This document shows, in pieces, positions 5,492-14,463 of a stretch of DNA of 64,000 nt. This DNA is from an uncultured Acidimicrobiales bacterium (GTDB taxonomy: Bacteria > Actinomycetota > Acidimicrobiia > Acidimicrobiales > SHLQ01). The notes under the pieces are model-generated. The model was given only the letters and a program-made list of their open reading frames with translations. It made no database searches and was not told the DNA's origin. The stretch's first letter is position 1. Every line of letters starts with the position of its first letter. The stretch is taken from contig CALLAA010000050.1 in assembly GCA_938002955.1 (NCBI GenBank), positions 7,177-71,176 of the forward strand, in the 5' to 3' direction. The translations under genes and the position numbers were made by a program.

Positions 5492-6610
5492 TTAGCCCTG
5501 GTCGCGAAGCGAGTCAGCCTCGAGAAGGCTGATCTCGGCGGCCGTACCGGCCGGTGTCAGACTCACCCAGGTCTGGCCTGGAGCAAGCCCGATGATGTCT
5601 CCCTCGGGCGTCGTCAGCGTGAACGGGTCGCGTGGGAAATCGCGGGTCCATTCGCCTTCGATACGGAATCCACCCGAGTACACAACGACCGGCCCGCCGC
5701 CCAACGTGATGGCGTCGACCGACGCCCGGTCGATCTGGCTCGGCAGGTAGGTGGTGGTGAGGACAACGACGTTGGCTGGGGTGATATGGACGCCGTCGCG
5801 AGTCACGTGCGGCTCGTCACCTTGGAAGCGGAGGTACCCGCCGTCCTGGGATGACCAGACGTAGACGGCGTCGGTGCGAGCAGAGATTCGCACGCCCGCC
5901 GATCCAGCGCCGAGGTCGATGACGTTGTCGGAGTAGTCAAAGATTGGAGCGGGTGGCTCGCCGCCATCTGCTCGCTCTACCAATGCAGCCGCGTCGGCAA
6001 CGAGATTGTTCGGTGCCCGGAAGTCGCTGATGCGTTTGAATTCTGAGTGTCCAAAGTCGGCGCTGGAACGGATCAACAGGCCTTCGTTCTCGGCGGCACG
6101 AAGCTGTCCGCTCACCCCATCGTTGGCTCCCGAGTAGGCAAACACGGGACGATTCAGGTTCGAGACAATGTCGACGTCGGAGGTACGGCCCGAACGCACC
6201 GAACCAACTTCGGTTGGCAGTTCCGAATGAAAGACCGACGCAAAGCGGGTGGCCTGCTGTTCGATCCGTTCTTCGTAGATGATGTCGGCTTTGTCGAGAC
6301 CCATAAGGGCCGCACGGGCTGCCGCGTCGTTGTTCGAGATCTTGATCACGACCGCAGCGTGATCTGGCGAATCGCTGTCGCCAATCGCCTCGCCCGTGAG
6401 TGGGAAGACCGGGCCGAGGTCGGGGGCTTCGGTTGTGGTCGTCGTGCTCTCGGTCGTGGTCGGGGCGGTCGTTGGCGCCTGGGTGGTCGTCGTCTCTGCG
6501 ACCGTCGTGGTCGACGACTCTGCGGTCTCGGCGTCATCACCTCCGCCGCATGCAGCGGCGACCATGCCGAGCAACGTAAGAACGGCGAGCAGACGGATCA
6601 ACTTGTGCAT
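5492..6610 (-). CDS. DUF3048 (YerB-like) lipoprotein
   Basis: AAAC lipobox, Thr-rich linker, PLTG, KISN, ADIIYEE, TRF, GSVRSGR motifs. Confidence 0.85.
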   Translation of the reverse strand: MHKLIRLLAVLTLLGMVAAACGGGDDAETAESSTTTVAETTTTQAPTTAPTTTESTTTTTEAPDLGPVFPLTGEAIGDSDSPDHAAVVIKISNNDAAARAALMGLDKADIIYEERIEQQATRFASVFHSELPTEVGSVRSGRTSDVDIVSNLNRPVFAYSGANDGVSGQLRAAENEGLLIRSSADFGHSEFKRISDFRAPNNLVADAAALVERADGGEPPAPIFDYSDNVIDLGAGSAGVRISARTDAVYVWSSQDGGYLRFQGDEPHVTRDGVHITPANVVVLTTTYLPSQIDRASVDAITLGGGPVVVYSGGFRIEGEWTRDFPRDPFTLTTPEGDIIGLAPGQTWVSLTPAGTAAEISLLEADSLRDQG

Positions 6611-7314
6611 TACAACTCCCAGAGGACTTCGATTCGGTGGTCGAGGGGAACTCGCTGCGCTGCAGGAGGGACCAGCAAGGCTGCTCCCAATGAGTCCGCA
6701 CCCGGAATATCTGTCGACCGCCCGTCGATTCGCTCTAATGCAGAGCGGAGTCCCGGTGGGTACCGGGTGAGCCCAACACCAGAGATATCAAACGAAATAA
6801 CGCCCGCGTCGCCGGTTCCCCAGCGGCGGGCCATTTCTCGTTGTGCTCCAGTGATGAACGGATGTGCAGATGCCGCGAGGGTCTCATAGGTGACCGCTCC
6901 CGTCGACATCTTGGTGAGACCGTGGGCGACGACGCCCTCCATCTCCATAACGTTGAGTTCGTTGAGTAGACCCGTCGTTGCGATCAGTGCATCGTTGCGT
7001 CCCGATACCGAGATCAAGTTGCATGCGGGTGTATCGATGACGAGCAGATCGGGCTGATCGATACCCGACGTCAGGCACAGGTTCTCAACGGTGTTGCGAA
7101 TGCGCTGTCCCTCGGTCTGACCGAGCGGGCGTGCGTCGAGAGAACGGATGATTGCGTCGTCGGACCGATACCAGAAGTACCAGACGGTTGCGGCGGCGGC
7201 AGGCAGCGACAACAGCGCAAGCGGCCACCAGGCGAAGCCGAGCAGCAGGAAGACTAGAAAGACCGCGAGAGCGGGTATTGCAAAGATCGCAAGAATCCGG
7301 GTGGGCATGCTCAC
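6610..7314 (-). CDS. HtpX/M48-like membrane protein, probably catalytically degenerate
   Basis: Two N-terminal TMs, VENLC, TTGLL..L...EMEGVVAHGL, LTRYPPGLRSAL; HExxH replaced by HGLTK. Confidence 0.75.
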   Translation of the reverse strand: MSMPTRILAIFAIPALAVFLVFLLLGFAWWPLALLSLPAAAATVWYFWYRSDDAIIRSLDARPLGQTEGQRIRNTVENLCLTSGIDQPDLLVIDTPACNLISVSGRNDALIATTGLLNELNVMEMEGVVAHGLTKMSTGAVTYETLAASAHPFITGAQREMARRWGTGDAGVISFDISGVGLTRYPPGLRSALERIDGRSTDIPGADSLGAALLVPPAAQRVPLDHRIEVLWEL

Positions 7315-9402: not shown

Positions 9403-10104
9403 TCAGCGCCGATCGGTCTTGCGCCAACGAGCCGAGGCTGGTTCGCGCGACGTCCGGCGCGCTTCTCGAGCACGACGGCGAGTTACTGGCCCCGGTGGTG
9501 GGGTTGGTCGACCAACGCTGGCCTGCTTCCACACCTTGAAGAACCTCTGGATTGCGGTGATTGCGGTCAAGGCCAACATCACCCAAAGGACACCGAGCAG
9601 CAGTGTCTCGTTGAACGCTCCGAGAAACAGACCGAACCCGAGCGCAATAAATCGCTCAGCACGCTCCATGAGCCCGCCCTTGGCATCGAACCCGAGGGAC
9701 TCAGCTTTGGCCCGCTGGTAGCTGATCATGATCGCGAGGCCCATGATCGCGACGGGAAGCATGTGGATCTGCCCATCGCGAGTCACGGACAGGTGCCAGG
9801 CAACGCCGCAGAACAACATGATGTCGGTGAGTCGATCAGATACCGAGTCGAAGTATGCGCCGCGCATCGATGACGTGCCCGACGCCTTCGCGATCGCTCC
9901 GTCGAGCAGATCGGGAAGCCCGGTCAGGACCATCAGCACGAGCCCGGCGGCGAGGTTGCCCGAGCCAATGACGACTGCGGCAACCGCGGACATCGCGATG
10001 CCGACGAGGGTCATCACATCTGCGGTGATTCCCATGTTGACCAAGGCGGCGCCTACGGGCTGCACTCCCCTGTCGATCTGTTCTCTCATATTTCCATCGA
10101 ACAT
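9403..10104 (-). CDS. pgsA: CDP-alcohol phosphatidyltransferase (phosphatidylinositol phosphate synthase)
   Basis: DLLDGAIAK...GAYFDSVSDR signature; GGAGG SD. Confidence 0.9.
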   Translation of the reverse strand: MFDGNMREQIDRGVQPVGAALVNMGITADVMTLVGIAMSAVAAVVIGSGNLAAGLVLMVLTGLPDLLDGAIAKASGTSSMRGAYFDSVSDRLTDIMLFCGVAWHLSVTRDGQIHMLPVAIMGLAIMISYQRAKAESLGFDAKGGLMERAERFIALGFGLFLGAFNETLLLGVLWVMLALTAITAIQRFFKVWKQASVGRPTPPPGPVTRRRAREARRTSREPASARWRKTDRR

Positions 10105-10217: not shown

Positions 10218-10712
10218 ATGGGAGATCGATACGACAGCCTTCAGCCCGCCAGCCTCATTGCGTCCATGACGTCGATGCCACGCCGGTGGAAGGACGCAAT
10301 GCGAGTTGCCCCACCGAAGAGCATCGATGACTACTTCACCGTCGATGGTGAACACGGCTCGGCGGCCGAGCACGTCGGTGCCGTGATCGCTCAGCTGTCG
10401 ACGCTCAGCGATGCGATCCGGACGACCAGCTACAACGTGCCGGAGCCACTGACGAGCGCCGTCGTTGCGGCTGCGTCAAACACCGGCTCAGGCCCGTGGC
10501 CCGAATCGGCTTCGGACGGGCTGTCCGAACTCACGAGTCTCTTCGAAACGCTCACCGGCCAGCTGCAACAGCTCAACCCCCGAGACTGGAATAAGTCGGC
10601 CGACGCTGGTTCGACGATGCTCACCGTGTTGGCACTTGCCCAGGGTGCGAGCCGGGTCGCCGCCGACCGCCTAGCGATCGTCGAGCGCACCATTCGCACC
10701 CTGGCCGACTAG
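10218..10712 (+). CDS. Hypothetical protein, possibly DinB-like fold
   Basis: 164 aa helical ORF, SAAEHV segment; leaderless TAGCAT-6nt-ATG. Confidence 0.6.
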   Translation: MGDRYDSLQPASLIASMTSMPRRWKDAMRVAPPKSIDDYFTVDGEHGSAAEHVGAVIAQLSTLSDAIRTTSYNVPEPLTSAVVAAASNTGSGPWPESASDGLSELTSLFETLTGQLQQLNPRDWNKSADAGSTMLTVLALAQGASRVAADRLAIVERTIRTLAD

Positions 10713-10715
10713 CAG

Positions 10716-11246
10716 CTAGTCGGCAGGTTCGAGTGCAGCCCAATCTTCGGGATTGTCCTCGACGAGGATCGTGATCACTTCGCCATCGACTCCGTCGACC
10801 ATGGCGAACCCGCGGCTCTTTGGCGGAGACTCGTTGGAGTACAACAAAATGCGCCATGTCGGACGGCTGCGAAGTCCGCGCCAGGCCATCTGCGCCGACG
10901 CGTGCCCGACCGGGAAGCCAACAGCCTTGGTCGCCTCGACCAAGGCGTCTTGCTCATCGACGGCCAAGTTCCAGCCGCCCTGGATGTGATAGAGCCCAAC
11001 GGCGATCAGTCCGAGTGCGCCAAGCGCGAGCCCGCCGTTCATCAACGGAGACGTATCGGCTCGTCCGAGGAACCACAGCACCAAGAGGACCCCGCCGATC
11101 ACCAAATACAACACGCCGGGAATCCGCCGTTTGCTATTGTTCGGGAAGAGGTACGGCCCAACGAAGTCCGCAGCGTTCAGGTCGTCTGGAAGTTCATCGA
11201 CGTATTCGTCGTCATCAACCATTGGATCGACATCTTCGGTAGCCAC
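10716..11246 (-). CDS. Hypothetical membrane protein
   Basis: Two TM segments; leaderless TATCAT-6nt-GTG. Confidence 0.75.
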   Translation of the reverse strand: MATEDVDPMVDDDEYVDELPDDLNAADFVGPYLFPNNSKRRIPGVLYLVIGGVLLVLWFLGRADTSPLMNGGLALGALGLIAVGLYHIQGGWNLAVDEQDALVEATKAVGFPVGHASAQMAWRGLRSRPTWRILLYSNESPPKSRGFAMVDGVDGEVITILVEDNPEDWAALEPAD

Positions 11247-11323
11247 AACGAGATGATACGCCCGAGGAGCCTGAGCGACACAGCTGTGCGATGAGGGTCA
11301 CCTCAACATCTGCGTCACGCAAA

Positions 11324-11869
11324 CTATTGGGCGATCAGCCCTTCGACATCGGCCCGCAACGAGCCATACCCACTCGTGCGCCACGTACCGTCATCGTTGA
11401 TGTAGACGTACGTCCGCTGACGGGTAACCCCGAAACGGTCCCAGACGTCGTCAGCATTGTCGAGGTGTGGGAATCCTTCGACGCCGGTGTCCTCGATGAA
11501 CTCCCGCATCGCTGCCGCGTCCGCGAGTCCTGGCACACCGATAAACGTGACCTCGTCGCCAAATTCTTCCTGGACTCCTACGACCGTAGGAGCTTCACGG
11601 CGTCAAAACGGTCACCACGGCGCCCAGAACCAGAGCACGACATCTTCACCTTGCAGCGTGGCCAGATCGACCGTCGTGCCGTCGAGTGATGCAAATTCTC
11701 CCGAGAGCGTTTCCTCGGCAGGTACAGCGGCTGTGTCATCTGCGGCAGCGGTATCGCTCGCAGTCGTCGTTCCGCCGCAGGCGGATGCGACGAAGCCCAT
11801 GATCAGCGCAATCGCCAGGAGGCGCCGGAACAGCGGCCCTGAACCTGTCGAACGCTGGGGTGCATGCAT
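11324..11869 (-). CDS. TlpA/DsbE-like thioredoxin-fold lipoprotein with UxxU (two selenocysteines)
   Basis: One frame joins the two track ORFs: VVLWFWAPW-TGA-PF-TGA-RREAPTV...VTFIGV...VWDRFGVTRQRTYVYI; TGAs at 11612-11614 and 11603-11605; ASAC lipobox; leaderless TATTCT-6nt-ATG. Confidence 0.88.
11574..11593 (-). promoter_or_regulatory. Putative bacterial SECIS element
   Basis: GCTCCTAC-GGTC-GTAGGAGT hairpin; loop starts with G at +18 from the second UGA and +27 from the first. Confidence 0.75.
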
Positions 11870-11942
11870 GGCACCAGAATAGGTCCGGGCCAATCGAACG
11901 AGCGGTTCTCCAGCCAATTCTAACGAGTCACTTACCGTCTGT

Positions 11943-12512
11943 TCATTTCGTTGGCCAGGCCGCCCGAAGCCGCGTCCACGAATCACCGAGACTCTCGGGG
12001 AGCACCCGGGCCTCCGCAATACTCGTCATGAAGTTCGTGTCGCCGCTCCAGCGGGGCAGGACGTGCACATGTATGTGATCCGGCACGCCGGCCCCGGACG
12101 CTCGTCCCAGGTTCATACCCATGTTCACCCCATCGGGCTGGTACTCGGCTTTGACCGCTTCGATCCCCATGCGCACGCCAGCGAACAGCTCGATGTACGT
12201 CTCCTCATCCAAGTCTTCGAGGTTGACGGCCGCCTTCTTGGGCAGCACCATCAGATGTCCTGAGGTGTATGGGTAGGCGTTGAGCAACGCAAAGCAATGC
12301 TCGCCACGCCACAACACATAGGTCACCGAGTCGTCGAGGCCCGACTGCTCGATCCCCTCGAACAACGTCAATCCCTCGACATGTCCCTTCGACCGCTCAT
12401 CGTCGTCGGCCAGAATGTAGGGAATTCGCCAACCCGACCACAGACGCGGCATCTGATCACCGCCGGCGAGCGTGTTGTCGAGCGGTGAGTCGCCGGCGTT
12501 AGGACTTTGCAT
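11943..12512 (-). CDS. HIT family protein (Ap4A phosphorylase-like)
   Basis: LNAYPYTSGHLMVLP, HIHVHVLPRW; follows thrS; start could be 12452. Confidence 0.9.
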   Translation of the reverse strand: MQSPNAGDSPLDNTLAGGDQMPRLWSGWRIPYILADDDERSKGHVEGLTLFEGIEQSGLDDSVTYVLWRGEHCFALLNAYPYTSGHLMVLPKKAAVNLEDLDEETYIELFAGVRMGIEAVKAEYQPDGVNMGMNLGRASGAGVPDHIHVHVLPRWSGDTNFMTSIAEARVLPESLGDSWTRLRAAWPTK

Positions 12513-14463
12513 CGACTTCGGCGGCGAGACGTGCGATGAAATCCTCGACGCTCACGTCGCGGTCGACCTCTTGCACACCGCGCTCATTGACGCCAACCGT
12601 CGAGTTTGCGACGTCGTCGTCGCCGACGACGAGCACGTACGGAGTCTTTTCGACCTTGCCCTTGCGAACGCGTTTGCCGAGCGGGTCGGTGGCCGGGTCG
12701 ATCTCGACGCGGAATCCAGATTCCTTGAACTTCGCCATGATCTCGTATGCGTAGTCCTCGTGCGCCTCAGCAACCGGAAGCACCTTGATCTGGACCGGCG
12801 CAAGCCAGGCCGGGAAGTTACCGGCGTAATGCTCGATGAGCACGCCAAAGAACCGCTCGATCGATCCCATGAGGGCACGATGGATCATGACCGGGCGTTT
12901 GCGCTCGCCGTCCTGGGCCACGTACTCGAGGTCGAACCGCTCCGGCAGGTTGAAGTCGAGCTGAATAGTCGACAGTTGCCACGCACGACCGATCGCATCG
13001 CGGACGTCGACATCGATCTTGGGCCCGTAGAACGCGCCGCCGCCCTCGTCGACGATGTAGTCGAGGCCCTGCTTCTCGAGCGCTGCCTTGAGCCCAGCCG
13101 TCGCAGAGTCCCAGATCTCATCGTCGCCCACCGACTTTTCGACAGGGCGAGTCGACAGCTTTGCCTGGAAATCGTCAAAGCCAAATGCTCGCAGCACGGA
13201 CAGGACGAAGTCGAGCAACGAGGCAAGCTCGTCCTCGATCATCTCTCGTGTGCAGAAGATATGACTGTCGTCCTGGGTGAACCCGCGGCTCCGCATGAGC
13301 CCGTGTACAGCACCAGAAAGCTCGTAGCGGTACACGGTTCCGAGCTCGAAGATGCGCTTGGGCAGGTCGCGATAGGAACGCTGATCGCTCTTGTAGATCA
13401 TCACGTGGAACGGGCAGTTCATAGGCTTCGGGTAGTACGTGGCGCCGTCCATCTCCATGGGCGGATACATACCGTCGGCGTAGAAATCGAGGTGTCCCGA
13501 CGTCTCCCACAGCACCGACTTCGCAATGTGGGGGCTAAACGCAAAGTCATAGCCGCCATGCTCATGGCGGTCGCGGCTGTAGTCCTCCATGATCTTGCGG
13601 ATCAACGCGCCCTTGGGATGCCAGACGGACAACCCCGGACCGAGTTCTTCGGGCCAGGACACGAGGTCCATCTCTTGGGCAAGACGACGGTGGTCGCGCT
13701 TTTCGGCCTCTTCGAGACGGTGGAGGTGCGCTTTCAGGTCCTTCTTGTTGGCCCATGCCGTGCCATAGATGCGTTGGAGCATCGGGCGCTTCTCGTCGCC
13801 GCGCCAGTAGGCGCCCGCGACCTTCATGAGCTTGAAATGCTCGAGACGTCCGGTACTCGGGACGTGCGGGCCAGTGCACATGTCGAGGAACGTTTCGGAG
13901 TTCCGGTAGTAGCTGACAACGTCTCCGCTGACCTCGCCAGCGTCCTCGCTCGCAGCCGCCCCGCTCGCCACGTTCTGAATGATCTCGAGCTTGTAGGGCT
14001 CGTCCTTGAATAGATCGAGCGCCTCGTCGACCGACACCTCGTGACGCTCAAAGGGCTGATCGGCCTTGACCAGCTCCTTCATTCGCGCCTCGATCGCGCC
14101 GAGGTCGTCGTCCGACAACGTCTTGCCATCGGGAAGATCAAAGTCGTAATAGAAGCCGTGTTCAATCGGCGGACCGATCGCAAAGCGAGCGCCCGGGTGG
14201 AGATCCAAGATTGCCTGGGCCATGAGATGAGCCGTCGAGTGACGGATCGTGTGCAAGCCCTCGTCGTCGGATCCCGTAACTAACGCAACCGACGCCCCGT
14301 CGTCGAGCGGAACGTCCAGGTCGACCTCGACACCATCGACAACGGCGATCAACGCAGCCTTGGCAAGACCCGGACCGATATCGGCCGCAAGGTCGGCGGC
14401 AGTCGCCCCAGAGGACAACTCACGCGTTGATCCATCGGGCAGGGTGACATTTACAGCGCTCAT
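12499..14463 (-). CDS. thrS: Threonine--tRNA ligase
   Basis: TGS domain, HSTAH, GAYWRG, KPMNCP, GAFYGPKID. Confidence 0.98.
   Translation of the reverse strand: MSAVNVTLPDGSTRELSSGATAADLAADIGPGLAKAALIAVVDGVEVDLDVPLDDGASVALVTGSDDEGLHTIRHSTAHLMAQAILDLHPGARFAIGPPIEHGFYYDFDLPDGKTLSDDDLGAIEARMKELVKADQPFERHEVSVDEALDLFKDEPYKLEIIQNVASGAAASEDAGEVSGDVVSYYRNSETFLDMCTGPHVPSTGRLEHFKLMKVAGAYWRGDEKRPMLQRIYGTAWANKKDLKAHLHRLEEAEKRDHRRLAQEMDLVSWPEELGPGLSVWHPKGALIRKIMEDYSRDRHEHGGYDFAFSPHIAKSVLWETSGHLDFYADGMYPPMEMDGATYYPKPMNCPFHVMIYKSDQRSYRDLPKRIFELGTVYRYELSGAVHGLMRSRGFTQDDSHIFCTREMIEDELASLLDFVLSVLRAFGFDDFQAKLSTRPVEKSVGDDEIWDSATAGLKAALEKQGLDYIVDEGGGAFYGPKIDVDVRDAIGRAWQLSTIQLDFNLPERFDLEYVAQDGERKRPVMIHRALMGSIERFFGVLIEHYAGNFPAWLAPVQIKVLPVAEAHEDYAYEIMAKFKESGFRVEIDPATDPLGKRVRKGKVEKTPYVLVVGDDDVANSTVGVNERGVQEVDRDVSVEDFIARLAAEVDAKS

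Follow-up and report, generated by a model that had tools for sequence, protein, structure and literature searches.

A predicted two-selenocysteine lipoprotein of the DsbE/DsbF type, with a single SECIS-type hairpin, in marine Acidimicrobiales

A stretch of 64,000 nucleotides from an uncultured Acidimicrobiales bacterium (positions 7,177 to 71,176 of contig CALLAA010000050.1, assembly GCA_938002955.1), referred to here as the window, carries on its minus strand a gene in which two in-frame TGA codons take the places of the two cysteines of a thioredoxin-type CxxC active site. The gene very probably encodes a functional DsbE/DsbF-type lipoprotein with two selenocysteines (Sec, U), read through one selenocysteine insertion sequence (SECIS). 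Its parts are the following.

11324..11869, minus strand: full coding sequence, 181 codons plus TAG, both inner TGA codons translated as selenocysteine
11777..11869, minus strand: signal peptide with lipobox, residues 1-31, ...FRRLLAIALIMGFVASA-C31-GG, read from the translation
11708..11776, minus strand: Ala/Thr/Asp-rich linker, residues 32-54, from the predicted lipid-anchored Cys to the thioredoxin domain
11612..11614, minus strand: UGA1, read as Sec86, where CxxC has its first, N-terminal Cys
11603..11605, minus strand: UGA2, read as Sec89, where CxxC has its second Cys, and aligned to the peroxidatic Cys of a BCP-type peroxiredoxin
11574..11593, minus strand: SECIS-type hairpin GCUCCUAC-GGUC-GUAGGAGU, 8 base pairs, loop 11585-11582
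11414..11416, minus strand: codon of Arg152, the residue in place of the cis-Pro of thioredoxin folds, in the column of Q-P in DsbF and DsbE

An earlier note on this DNA, made from the letters alone, had read WAPW-*-PF-*-RREAP on the minus strand, and re-reading the sequence gave exactly the same: the segment 11640-11570 contains CTC TGG TTC TGG GCG CCG TGG TGA CCG TTT TGA CGC CGT GAA GCT CCT ACG GTC GTA GGA G. With TGA read as U, the active site becomes W-A-P-W-U86-P-F-U89-R-R-E-A-P. Translation table 11 breaks the frame into two pieces, as the note's open reading frame track had it, namely 11612-12019 (135 amino acids, ending ...WFWAPW) and 11324-11536 (70 amino acids). In profile alignments to WFWAPWCPTC of DsbF (3IOS) and WFWTPWCPFC of DsbE/MPT53 (1LU4), both TGAs fall on the two Cys of CxxC, and the read-through translation of 181 amino acids continues through a thioredoxin fold in the AF2 model of residues 50-181, both of which had been proposed.

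The read-through protein is matched by the Pfam families Redoxin (53.1 bits), AhpC-TSA (46.9) and Thioredoxin (35.4), all above their cut-offs, and at E up to 0.01 nothing was found in Pfam beyond these three, Thioredoxin_8 and Thioredoxin_2. All 12 NCBIfam matches were under cut-off (the best being ResA with 50.3 bits against 170, and WAxxUGC_long reaching 38 against 300), and the protein is assigned to none of the equivalogs ResA, TlpA, DsbE and WAxxUGC_long. A profile of 44 family sequences found DsbF (3IOS) at E 2.2e-45, DsbE/MPT53 (1LU4) at E 4.3e-37 and ResA at about 1e-18. In parallel, the AF2 model (mean pLDDT 94.1 over residues 50-181) had its best PDB matches in 3IOS (TM 0.88) and 1LU4 (TM 0.84), with ResA at about 0.8. 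The model has a thioredoxin fold with a WxxW-CxxC-type site at the N-terminus of helix 1, in which Sec stands in place of Cys, and a confident full-length fold was obtained from the read-through product only. By profile and by fold, the nearest relatives are thus DsbF and DsbE, which agrees with the family first suggested.

The N-terminus, M-H-A-P-Q-R-...-F-R-R-L-L-A-I-A-L-I-M-G-F-V-A-S-A-C31-G-G, is a lipoprotein-type signal by sequence pattern. The same pattern, a positively charged n-region, a hydrophobic core and an [AST][A/S/G]C lipobox-like motif, was found in all 36 Sec-type genes of the family (28 UxxU and 8 UxxC), so that the lipobox seen earlier in the window gene is also a conserved feature. 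The protein would be exported and lipid-anchored at the outer face of the membrane. In the Sec-type relatives the low-complexity linker that follows has a short form of 16-44 amino acids and a long form of 75-142 amino acids, the latter often in tandem.

The distribution of the family was followed by a search with the read-through protein in 61 related genomes, the matches listed leaving aside 14 weaker ones. Among the matches listed, two inner TGAs were present at 29 places in 22 of the 61 genomes, namely 20 of the 26 that belong to the genus, 2 of the 11 from the family's other genera and none of the 24 from the order's other families. All of these places but one (G023:C85) were read with a family pattern in which each of the two positions could be U or C, seven wrong-frame matches being dropped through the WxWxxW context. 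The form W-[FY]-W-[AS]-P-W-U-P-[FT]-U was found in 28 of 28 clade members, from 21 related genomes and the window's own. In addition, 8 more distant paralogs are U-x-x-C and 81 homologs are C-x-x-C at the same columns; the CxxC, UxxC and UxxU forms that the earlier note had asked about therefore all exist. Because both TGAs occur in every clade member although the search was equally open to Cys at each of them, chance is excluded as the source of the UxxU motif.

Cys homologs were sought in genome contigs with the peptide pattern W[FY]WAPWC, by which Cys forms alone could be retrieved, and the 80 loci obtained are all from Actinomycetota by record title. The spread of UxxU beyond the window was judged from the 61 genomes and from a metagenome scan whose pattern required both TGAs and the hairpin loop. 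The scan gave 21 stretches, of which 18 are family members (about 11 distinct sequences, with UPFU, UPVU, UPHU and UPGU sites) and 3 are chance matches. Altogether, every one of the 44 distinct Sec-type sequences of the family has TGA at the first position, and both TGAs were present in 46 family sequences from genomes and metagenomes. In protein databases the gene is present only in fragments, as four proteins that end ...WFWAPW and as 31 unnamed C-terminal pieces without Pfam annotation.

Tandem pairs of UxxU genes were observed in six relatives (L017, L020, L023, L025, L027 and L030), each with one short-linker copy and one copy with a Pro/Thr/Ala/Glu-rich linker of 75-142 amino acids. In L017 and L023 the tandem copies are identical across the 72 nucleotides that hold the active site and the SECIS, pointing to a recent duplication or to gene conversion.

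A SECIS-type element, expected wherever UGA encodes Sec, is present just downstream as a covarying hairpin. Its stem starts 10 nucleotides past UGA2 and 19 past UGA1, and the codon-to-loop distance is 17 nucleotides for UGA2 and 26 for UGA1; the shorter spacing resembles that of E. coli fdhF. The minimum free energy (MFE) of the hairpin is -11.3 kcal/mol (z -4.55), and none of 200 shuffles was as good. For both UGAs it agrees with a published SECIS model for bacteria, which has a loop of 3-9 nucleotides, G in the first two loop positions, a stem of 4-16 base pairs, a UGA-to-loop distance of 16-37 nucleotides and an MFE of at most -7.5 (PMC13188914). A scan of 11300-11900 with Rfam at E up to 10 gave no SECIS family, just two chance matches to small RNAs.

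Conservation of the hairpin was examined in an ungapped alignment of 34 distinct 72-nucleotide segments, two identical duplicates having been dropped. The GGUC loop and its closing C-G pair are invariant in all 34 rows. Compensatory changes, with no broken cell, were observed at pair 33/42 (UA 23, CG 11), pair 34/41 (AU 19, GC 15) and pair 30/45 (CG 27, UA 4, GC 2, UG 1), while pair 31/44 is mostly a C-A mismatch (28/34) and the stem has 7-8 base pairs. Paired cells amount to 86.8%, and to only 31.6-58.8% after a shift of the partner by 1-3 columns. The compensatory stem changes bring coordinated amino-acid changes (P-T-V-V versus P-A-V-A) and the two four-fold sites within the loop never vary, so that the constraint lies on the RNA. 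As a control, the same columns in 81 distinct CxxC homologs pair in 4.15 of 8 cases on average, with GGTC in 8 of 81, as compared to 6.86-7.12 of 8 paired and GGTC in 44 of 44 in the Sec forms. The hairpin is specific to UGA-bearing genes, and UxxC and UxxU genes carry it at the same place. Its position suggests that a single hairpin serves both UGAs.

The assembly that contains the window (3.93 Mb in 270 contigs, 89.5% complete, 61.6% G+C) encodes the machinery for Sec insertion. It has selA (317 bits), a SelB winged-helix domain directly adjoining selA, selD (263 bits) and one tRNA-Sec (64.5 bits with Rfam, called SeC/tca by aragorn), so that all four of the genes selA, selB, selC and selD for which the earlier note had proposed a search are there. 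TGA continues to serve as a stop codon in these organisms, 9 of the 36 Sec-type family genes terminating with it, and genome-wide reassignment of TGA is thereby ruled out.

SelD itself is a fusion of 728 amino acids (G000:C145, locus L009 1405-3591, minus strand), in which an N-terminal pyridine nucleotide-disulfide oxidoreductase (Pyr_redox_2, 99.6 bits) is followed by an AIRS/AIRS_C selenophosphate synthetase. On this contig there are also selA, selB, a UxxC paralog and a GPx-like gene whose frame contains a TGA. Besides the UxxU gene, at least five thioredoxin-fold or GPx-like genes in all have one in-frame TGA each at the active site (G000:C54:6186-6617, C145:46676-47119, C269:2760-3092, C109:5398-5766 and C145 near base 5678 on the plus strand; motifs WAPW-U-PTC, WAPW-U-PHC, WASW-U-GC, GDW-U-PYC and NVASF-U-G), which suggests that redox selenoproteins are numerous in this genome. 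A genome-wide scan for TGA followed by a GGUC hairpin returned 83 candidates, mostly spurious, and was not used as a count of the selenoproteome; only the two UxxC paralogs and a GPx-like gene were believable in it, and its filter dropped the UxxU gene itself.

The part of the gene downstream of the TGAs is under selection as a coding sequence. Comparison of the 28 UxxU genes in pairs gives a median dN/dS of 0.25 downstream of U2 (365 of 378 pairs, dS being not computable or <=0.05 in the others), and the value upstream of U1 is 0.22. Between the window gene and its closest relative, dN is 0.044, dS 0.42 and dN/dS 0.10 downstream of U2. The median dS in the clade is about 1.3, and differences downstream of U2 number 9476, 7931 and 16469 at the first, second and third codon positions. 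Selection is thus purifying on both sides of the TGAs, which answers the check that had been proposed for the downstream part.

Contigs from four public runs of four studies, one of which (run X3) shares its study with the possible source, cover the site and have no other letter at 11603-11614. In run X8 a variant with 8 differences in 376 bases (about 2%) keeps both TGAs, and the TGC or TGT that the earlier note had suggested looking for in raw data does not appear in the contigs of these runs. The label is marine metagenome for the runs that contain at least 0.95 of the sampled words of the stretch, and aquatic, plant or biofilm metagenome for others with smaller shares. Over the 40 nucleotides of 11594-11635, which cover the active site and the SECIS, summed contig depth rises 2- to 45-fold in all four runs, and the loose contig ends there have the form of related hairpins; these metagenomes therefore hold many further relatives of the family.

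The second Sec is accompanied in this clade by a change at the cis-Pro position. The earlier note had pointed to QR in place of the usual QP, and R152 indeed aligns with the cis-Pro of DsbF and DsbE; the conserved cis-Pro ahead of strand beta3, a trait of the DsbE/DsbF and TlpA/ResA/CcmG type of extracytoplasmic oxidoreductase, is thus absent from the window protein. At this column UxxU sequences have Arg in 40 cases, Ser in 2, His in 1 and Gly in 1 (2 are truncated), UxxC paralogs have Pro in 8 of 8, and the 81 CxxC homologs have Pro in 38, Ser in 40, Tyr in 2 and Asp in 1. The 28 UxxU genes come together as a single, long-stemmed clade (SH-aLRT 100) in a tree of 44 sequences. A tree of 127 distinct sequences recovers the UxxU clade (38 rows, SH-aLRT 98), groups it with the UxxC paralogs (46 rows, SH-aLRT 95) and sets the Ser-type CxxC clade apart (SH-aLRT 97). 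The UxxU clade arose once, beside the UxxC paralogs, and the tree together with the counts at the cis-Pro column places the second Sec and the change from Pro to Arg on the same branch. The Ser-type CxxC clade (Q-S-T-[FY]-V; loci L046-L119) is monophyletic and includes Streptomyces, Actinoplanes, Nonomuraea, Lentzea and others.

In peroxiredoxins, the Arg that activates the peroxidatic Cys sits at the cis-Pro position (PMC2757866, Atkinson & Babbitt); the same work describes cis-Pro as likely part of a polypeptide binding site and, citing Su et al. 2007, as a residue that may prevent metal binding by CxxC. An Arg at this position, as in peroxiredoxins, is what 40 of 44 UxxU sequences have. When the family profile was aligned with the genome's own BCP by hhalign (probability 89%, E 2.3e-6, 112 columns), U86 fell on the Thr of the peroxiredoxin site, U89 on the peroxidatic Cys and R152 on the catalytic Arg, with QRTYVYINDDG paired to QRTTFLIDEHG. 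The alignment to a 1-Cys peroxiredoxin has the same register, at 5% probability.

A mechanism can be proposed from these data. SelB with Sec-tRNA, bound to the single hairpin, would recode UGA1 and then UGA2 three codons on, and in the UxxC paralogs this hairpin would act from the longer spacing. Once the protein had been exported and lipidated, its two selenols would cycle between diselenol and diselenide: Sec89 would attack a peroxide or another small oxidant, Sec86 would resolve the selenenic acid to give the diselenide, and a reductant would regenerate the diselenol. A peroxiredoxin-like peroxidase is the function that is preferred here, tentatively, because the clade that gained the second Sec swapped cis-Pro for Arg and because the second Sec sits at the place of the peroxidatic Cys. 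In its widest form, which is a possible but doubtful scenario, marine Acidimicrobiales would have turned a DsbE/DsbF-type oxidoreductase into a cell-surface seleno-peroxidase, taking Sec at the first Cys, then the second Sec and Arg in one step of the tree, with a catalytic diselenide and one SECIS used at two spacings 9 nucleotides apart.

Several points weigh against this explanation of the gene. Selenium in the protein, the diselenide, export and activity are all predictions from sequence, and the use of one hairpin for both codons is deduced from its position. The assembly being only 89.5% complete, a second SelB-dependent tRNA may exist. The DsbF, DsbE and ResA types of oxidoreductase are nearer in sequence and fold than any peroxiredoxin, and the peroxiredoxin motif PxxxTxxC(U) is absent, the Thr position being Sec86 and position -7 being Trp and not Pro. 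The Arg is not invariant: Ser, Ser, His and Gly replace it in 4 of 44 UxxU sequences, and the closest relative of the window protein (92% identity) has Ser. A separate CxxC clade also has Ser there (40/81), meaning that cis-Pro was lost in the family without selenium. Finally, no conserved neighbour gene indicating a partner or a pathway was found at 22 loci.

Some of these observations lead to a different function, for which the case is likewise tentative, that of a protein thiol-disulfide oxidoreductase of the envelope like DsbE, DsbF, ResA or TlpA, acting either as an oxidase or isomerase or as a CcdA-fed reductase. Selenium would then serve faster exchange and possibly direct re-oxidation by O2, and Arg would be a tuning residue rather than a peroxidase residue; small-molecule diselenides catalyse aerobic oxidative protein folding. 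This function fits the nearest relatives, first DsbF, then DsbE and ResA, the PF dipeptide shared with DsbE (CPFC), the CcdA/DsbD-type membrane proteins encoded elsewhere in the genome, the replacement of Arg in some UxxU sequences and the Cys clade that also lacks cis-Pro. Nevertheless, the cis-Pro loop, which is described as likely polypeptide-binding in PMC2757866, is lost across the UxxU clade and kept in all UxxC paralogs, and the very low redox potentials given for diselenides in PMC2397514 would make the protein a poor thermodynamic oxidant. Moreover, no CcdA, ResB/C or VKOR gene is linked to the family at the 22 loci.

It is improbable that the diselenol, instead of being a catalytic redox centre, binds or carries a soft metal or metalloid (Hg, Cu, As or selenium itself) at the cell surface. 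The cis-Pro that is said to prevent CxxC from binding metal (PMC2757866 citing Su et al. 2007) is indeed lost, but a cationic Arg beside the site disfavours cation binding, conserved adjoining genes for metal resistance or transport are lacking, and the fold and nearest relatives are those of oxidoreductases.

Still less credit can be given to a reading of one or both UGAs as Cys by a SelB- and SECIS-dependent tRNA-ReC (selC*), by which the protein would be UxxC, CxxU or CxxC. According to PMC13582414, such tRNAs are enriched in genomes with UXXU-type hydrogenases and either or both UGAs may be read otherwise, and the incomplete assembly leaves room for such a gene. Against this, a single tRNA scores above the tRNA-Sec threshold in the assembly and aragorn calls one SeC among 48 tRNAs. 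Two tRNAs have a GCA anticodon, one being an ordinary tRNA-Cys of 76 nucleotides and the other, of 80 nucleotides, a poor fold with mismatched arms. With Cys insertion, a change from TGA to TGY would be nearly neutral, yet all 28 clade members keep both TGAs at a median dS of about 1.3. No tRNA-ReC-like gene was seen in this 89.5%-complete assembly; the candidates C85 and C191 (odd aragorn tRNAs) and C65 (the 80-nucleotide 'tRNA-Cys') were dismissed for their 6-nucleotide anticodon loops or mismatched arms. That the gene is an artefact of sequencing or assembly, a pseudogene or a pair of separate small genes, as might be thought from the split made by standard gene calling and from the unnamed fragments in public protein sets, is excluded for practical purposes by the presence of both TGAs in 46 family sequences and in the contigs of the four runs, each from a different study, by purifying selection on both sides, by a SECIS confined to TGA forms and by a full-length fold reached only by read-through.

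Compared with DsbF (3IOS) and DsbE/MPT53 (1LU4) of M. tuberculosis, the window protein shares the family profile, the fold and the context WFW-x-PW-CxxC-x-x-EAP. It differs by Sec in place of both Cys, by Arg in place of cis-Pro (QQP/WQP) by a SECIS inside the coding sequence and by a 4-residue deletion together with a GYGS/NL motif near the C-terminus. DsbF and DsbE are secreted or lipid-anchored envelope proteins of actinobacteria.

Thioredoxin-fold selenoproteins with one or two Sec have been catalogued. PMC13188914 and PMC9312934 list a 'Prx-like thiol:disulfide oxidoreductase' (peroxiredoxin-like; PF00578; UxxC, UxxU; 1-2 Sec), a 'Redoxin family protein' (PF08534; UxxC), a UxxU metal-binding protein and a UxxU FmdB-family protein. 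The representative listed there is deltaproteobacterial, and early members came mostly from anaerobes (PMC1794560). The window protein has in common with the Prx-like and Redoxin families the thioredoxin fold and Sec at the first or both CxxC positions, and it passes both Pfam thresholds; by domain-level classification it falls within these catalogued kinds. The passages searched in the catalogues, figures and supplements being outside their scope, make no mention of Actinobacteria, Actinomycetota, lipoproteins, the periplasm or Arg at cis-Pro. A UxxU motif is rare yet not new in bacteria. The earlier note was right about the rarity, whereas its restriction of the motif to SelL did not stand, reviews listing bacterial UxxU thioredoxin-fold families.

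SelL is a Prx-like-2 (PF13911) protein. It is described, as cited in PMC2397514, as a UxxU protein of aquatic animals and marine bacteria in which a diselenide bond has been reported. The window protein resembles SelL by a UxxU motif in a thioredoxin/Prx-like fold and by an aquatic distribution, and differs from it by its sequence family, by a SECIS that is bacterial and inside the open reading frame and by being a predicted lipoprotein; its Pfam matches at E up to 0.01 and its nearest relatives, DsbF and DsbE, place it outside the SelL/Prx-like-2 family. The 'Prx-like 2' UxxU sequences of the GOS survey (PMC2398784) resembled the SelP N-terminal domain (pfam04592) weakly and lacked strong homologs among sequenced genomes. 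The window protein has no SelP_N match and plentiful strong homologs in actinobacterial genomes and is not a member of that group either.

With BCP-type peroxiredoxins (TxxC/TxxU with Arg), the likeness extends to Sec89 and the peroxidatic Cys, to Arg152 and the catalytic Arg and to the spacing Q-R-T-x-x-x-I-[DN]-x-x-G. The window protein differs from peroxiredoxins in being without PxxxT, Bcp1 (3DRN) came just at rank 42 in the fold search, and the Arg varies. As for double recoding, UXXU-type Group 4 [NiFeSe] hydrogenases have two UGAs three codons apart, for which a single SECIS was proposed (PMC13582414). The arrangement of two UGAs at that distance with one predicted downstream SECIS is the same, but the hydrogenase is an unrelated protein in which the residues are Ni ligands. 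The window family, by contrast, has UxxC sisters with identical hairpin placement, covariation and a Cys-homolog control, and the window's assembly revealed no tRNA-ReC-like gene.

Every predicted selenoprotein candidate in the Actinomarina preprint has a single Sec. In the literature searched, whose figures and supplementary lists lie outside the searched text and may contain one, no DsbE/DsbF-type UxxU lipoprotein clade was found in Acidimicrobiales. Within the same scope, neither an Arg at cis-Pro tied to a second Sec nor covariation with a Cys-homolog control backing one SECIS for two UGAs was found.

Natural Sec-x-x-Sec centres are very few. In the texts searched, SelL is the only experimentally characterised case cited and bacterial UxxU families are listed as predictions. 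The UxxU clade, which is common in one marine genus (20/26 genomes), compact (a domain of about 130 residues) and confidently modelled, is a practical system in which to measure what a biological diselenide does. Its sister genes with one UGA (UxxC) or two (UxxU) and the same hairpin in the same place form a natural experiment on Sec decoding, and because they share the hairpin position, the spacing tolerance of SelB and SECIS and the kinetics of two Sec insertions at a distance of three codons are directly testable. The second Sec and the change from cis-Pro to Arg, together on one branch, offer a testable case of a thioredoxin-type site moving towards peroxiredoxin-type chemistry; if the seleno-peroxidase proposal is true, it would repeat independently, and with selenium, the transition that has been proposed from thioredoxin to peroxiredoxin. 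For specialists of selenoproteins and redox enzymes, the main interest is an experimentally tractable natural diselenide centre along with a natural test of SECIS spacing. As public sets have only fragments and no NCBIfam cut-off is reached, the UxxU gene is likely unannotated in genomes of the group.

Around the gene, the segment 9403-14463 of the window has synteny of an actinobacterial type and contains the following features.

9403-10104: CDP-alcohol phosphatidyltransferase
10218-10712, other strand: conserved open reading frame of 164 amino acids, no Pfam family
10716-11246: conserved membrane protein of 176 amino acids, no Pfam family
11917..11945, minus strand: sigma-70-like match TGAACA-17-TAGAAT (consensus match only), overlapping the HIT stop codon by three bases (11943-11945)
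11943-12512: HIT
12499-14463: thrS

The leaderless promoter proposed in the earlier note was not borne out: the sole sigma-70-like match upstream (1 found against 0.1 expected in shuffles) would set the start about 40 nucleotides upstream of the ATG. The order thrS, HIT, UxxU gene, membrane protein and CDP-alcohol phosphatidyltransferase was found at 5 of 22 loci, and a nitroreductase-family neighbour at 6 of 22. The ThrRS of the window is 88% identical to P0073, which is labelled 'Verrucomicrobiales bacterium' and probably comes from a mis-binned contig; the other named matches (85% and 83%) are from Acidimicrobiales.

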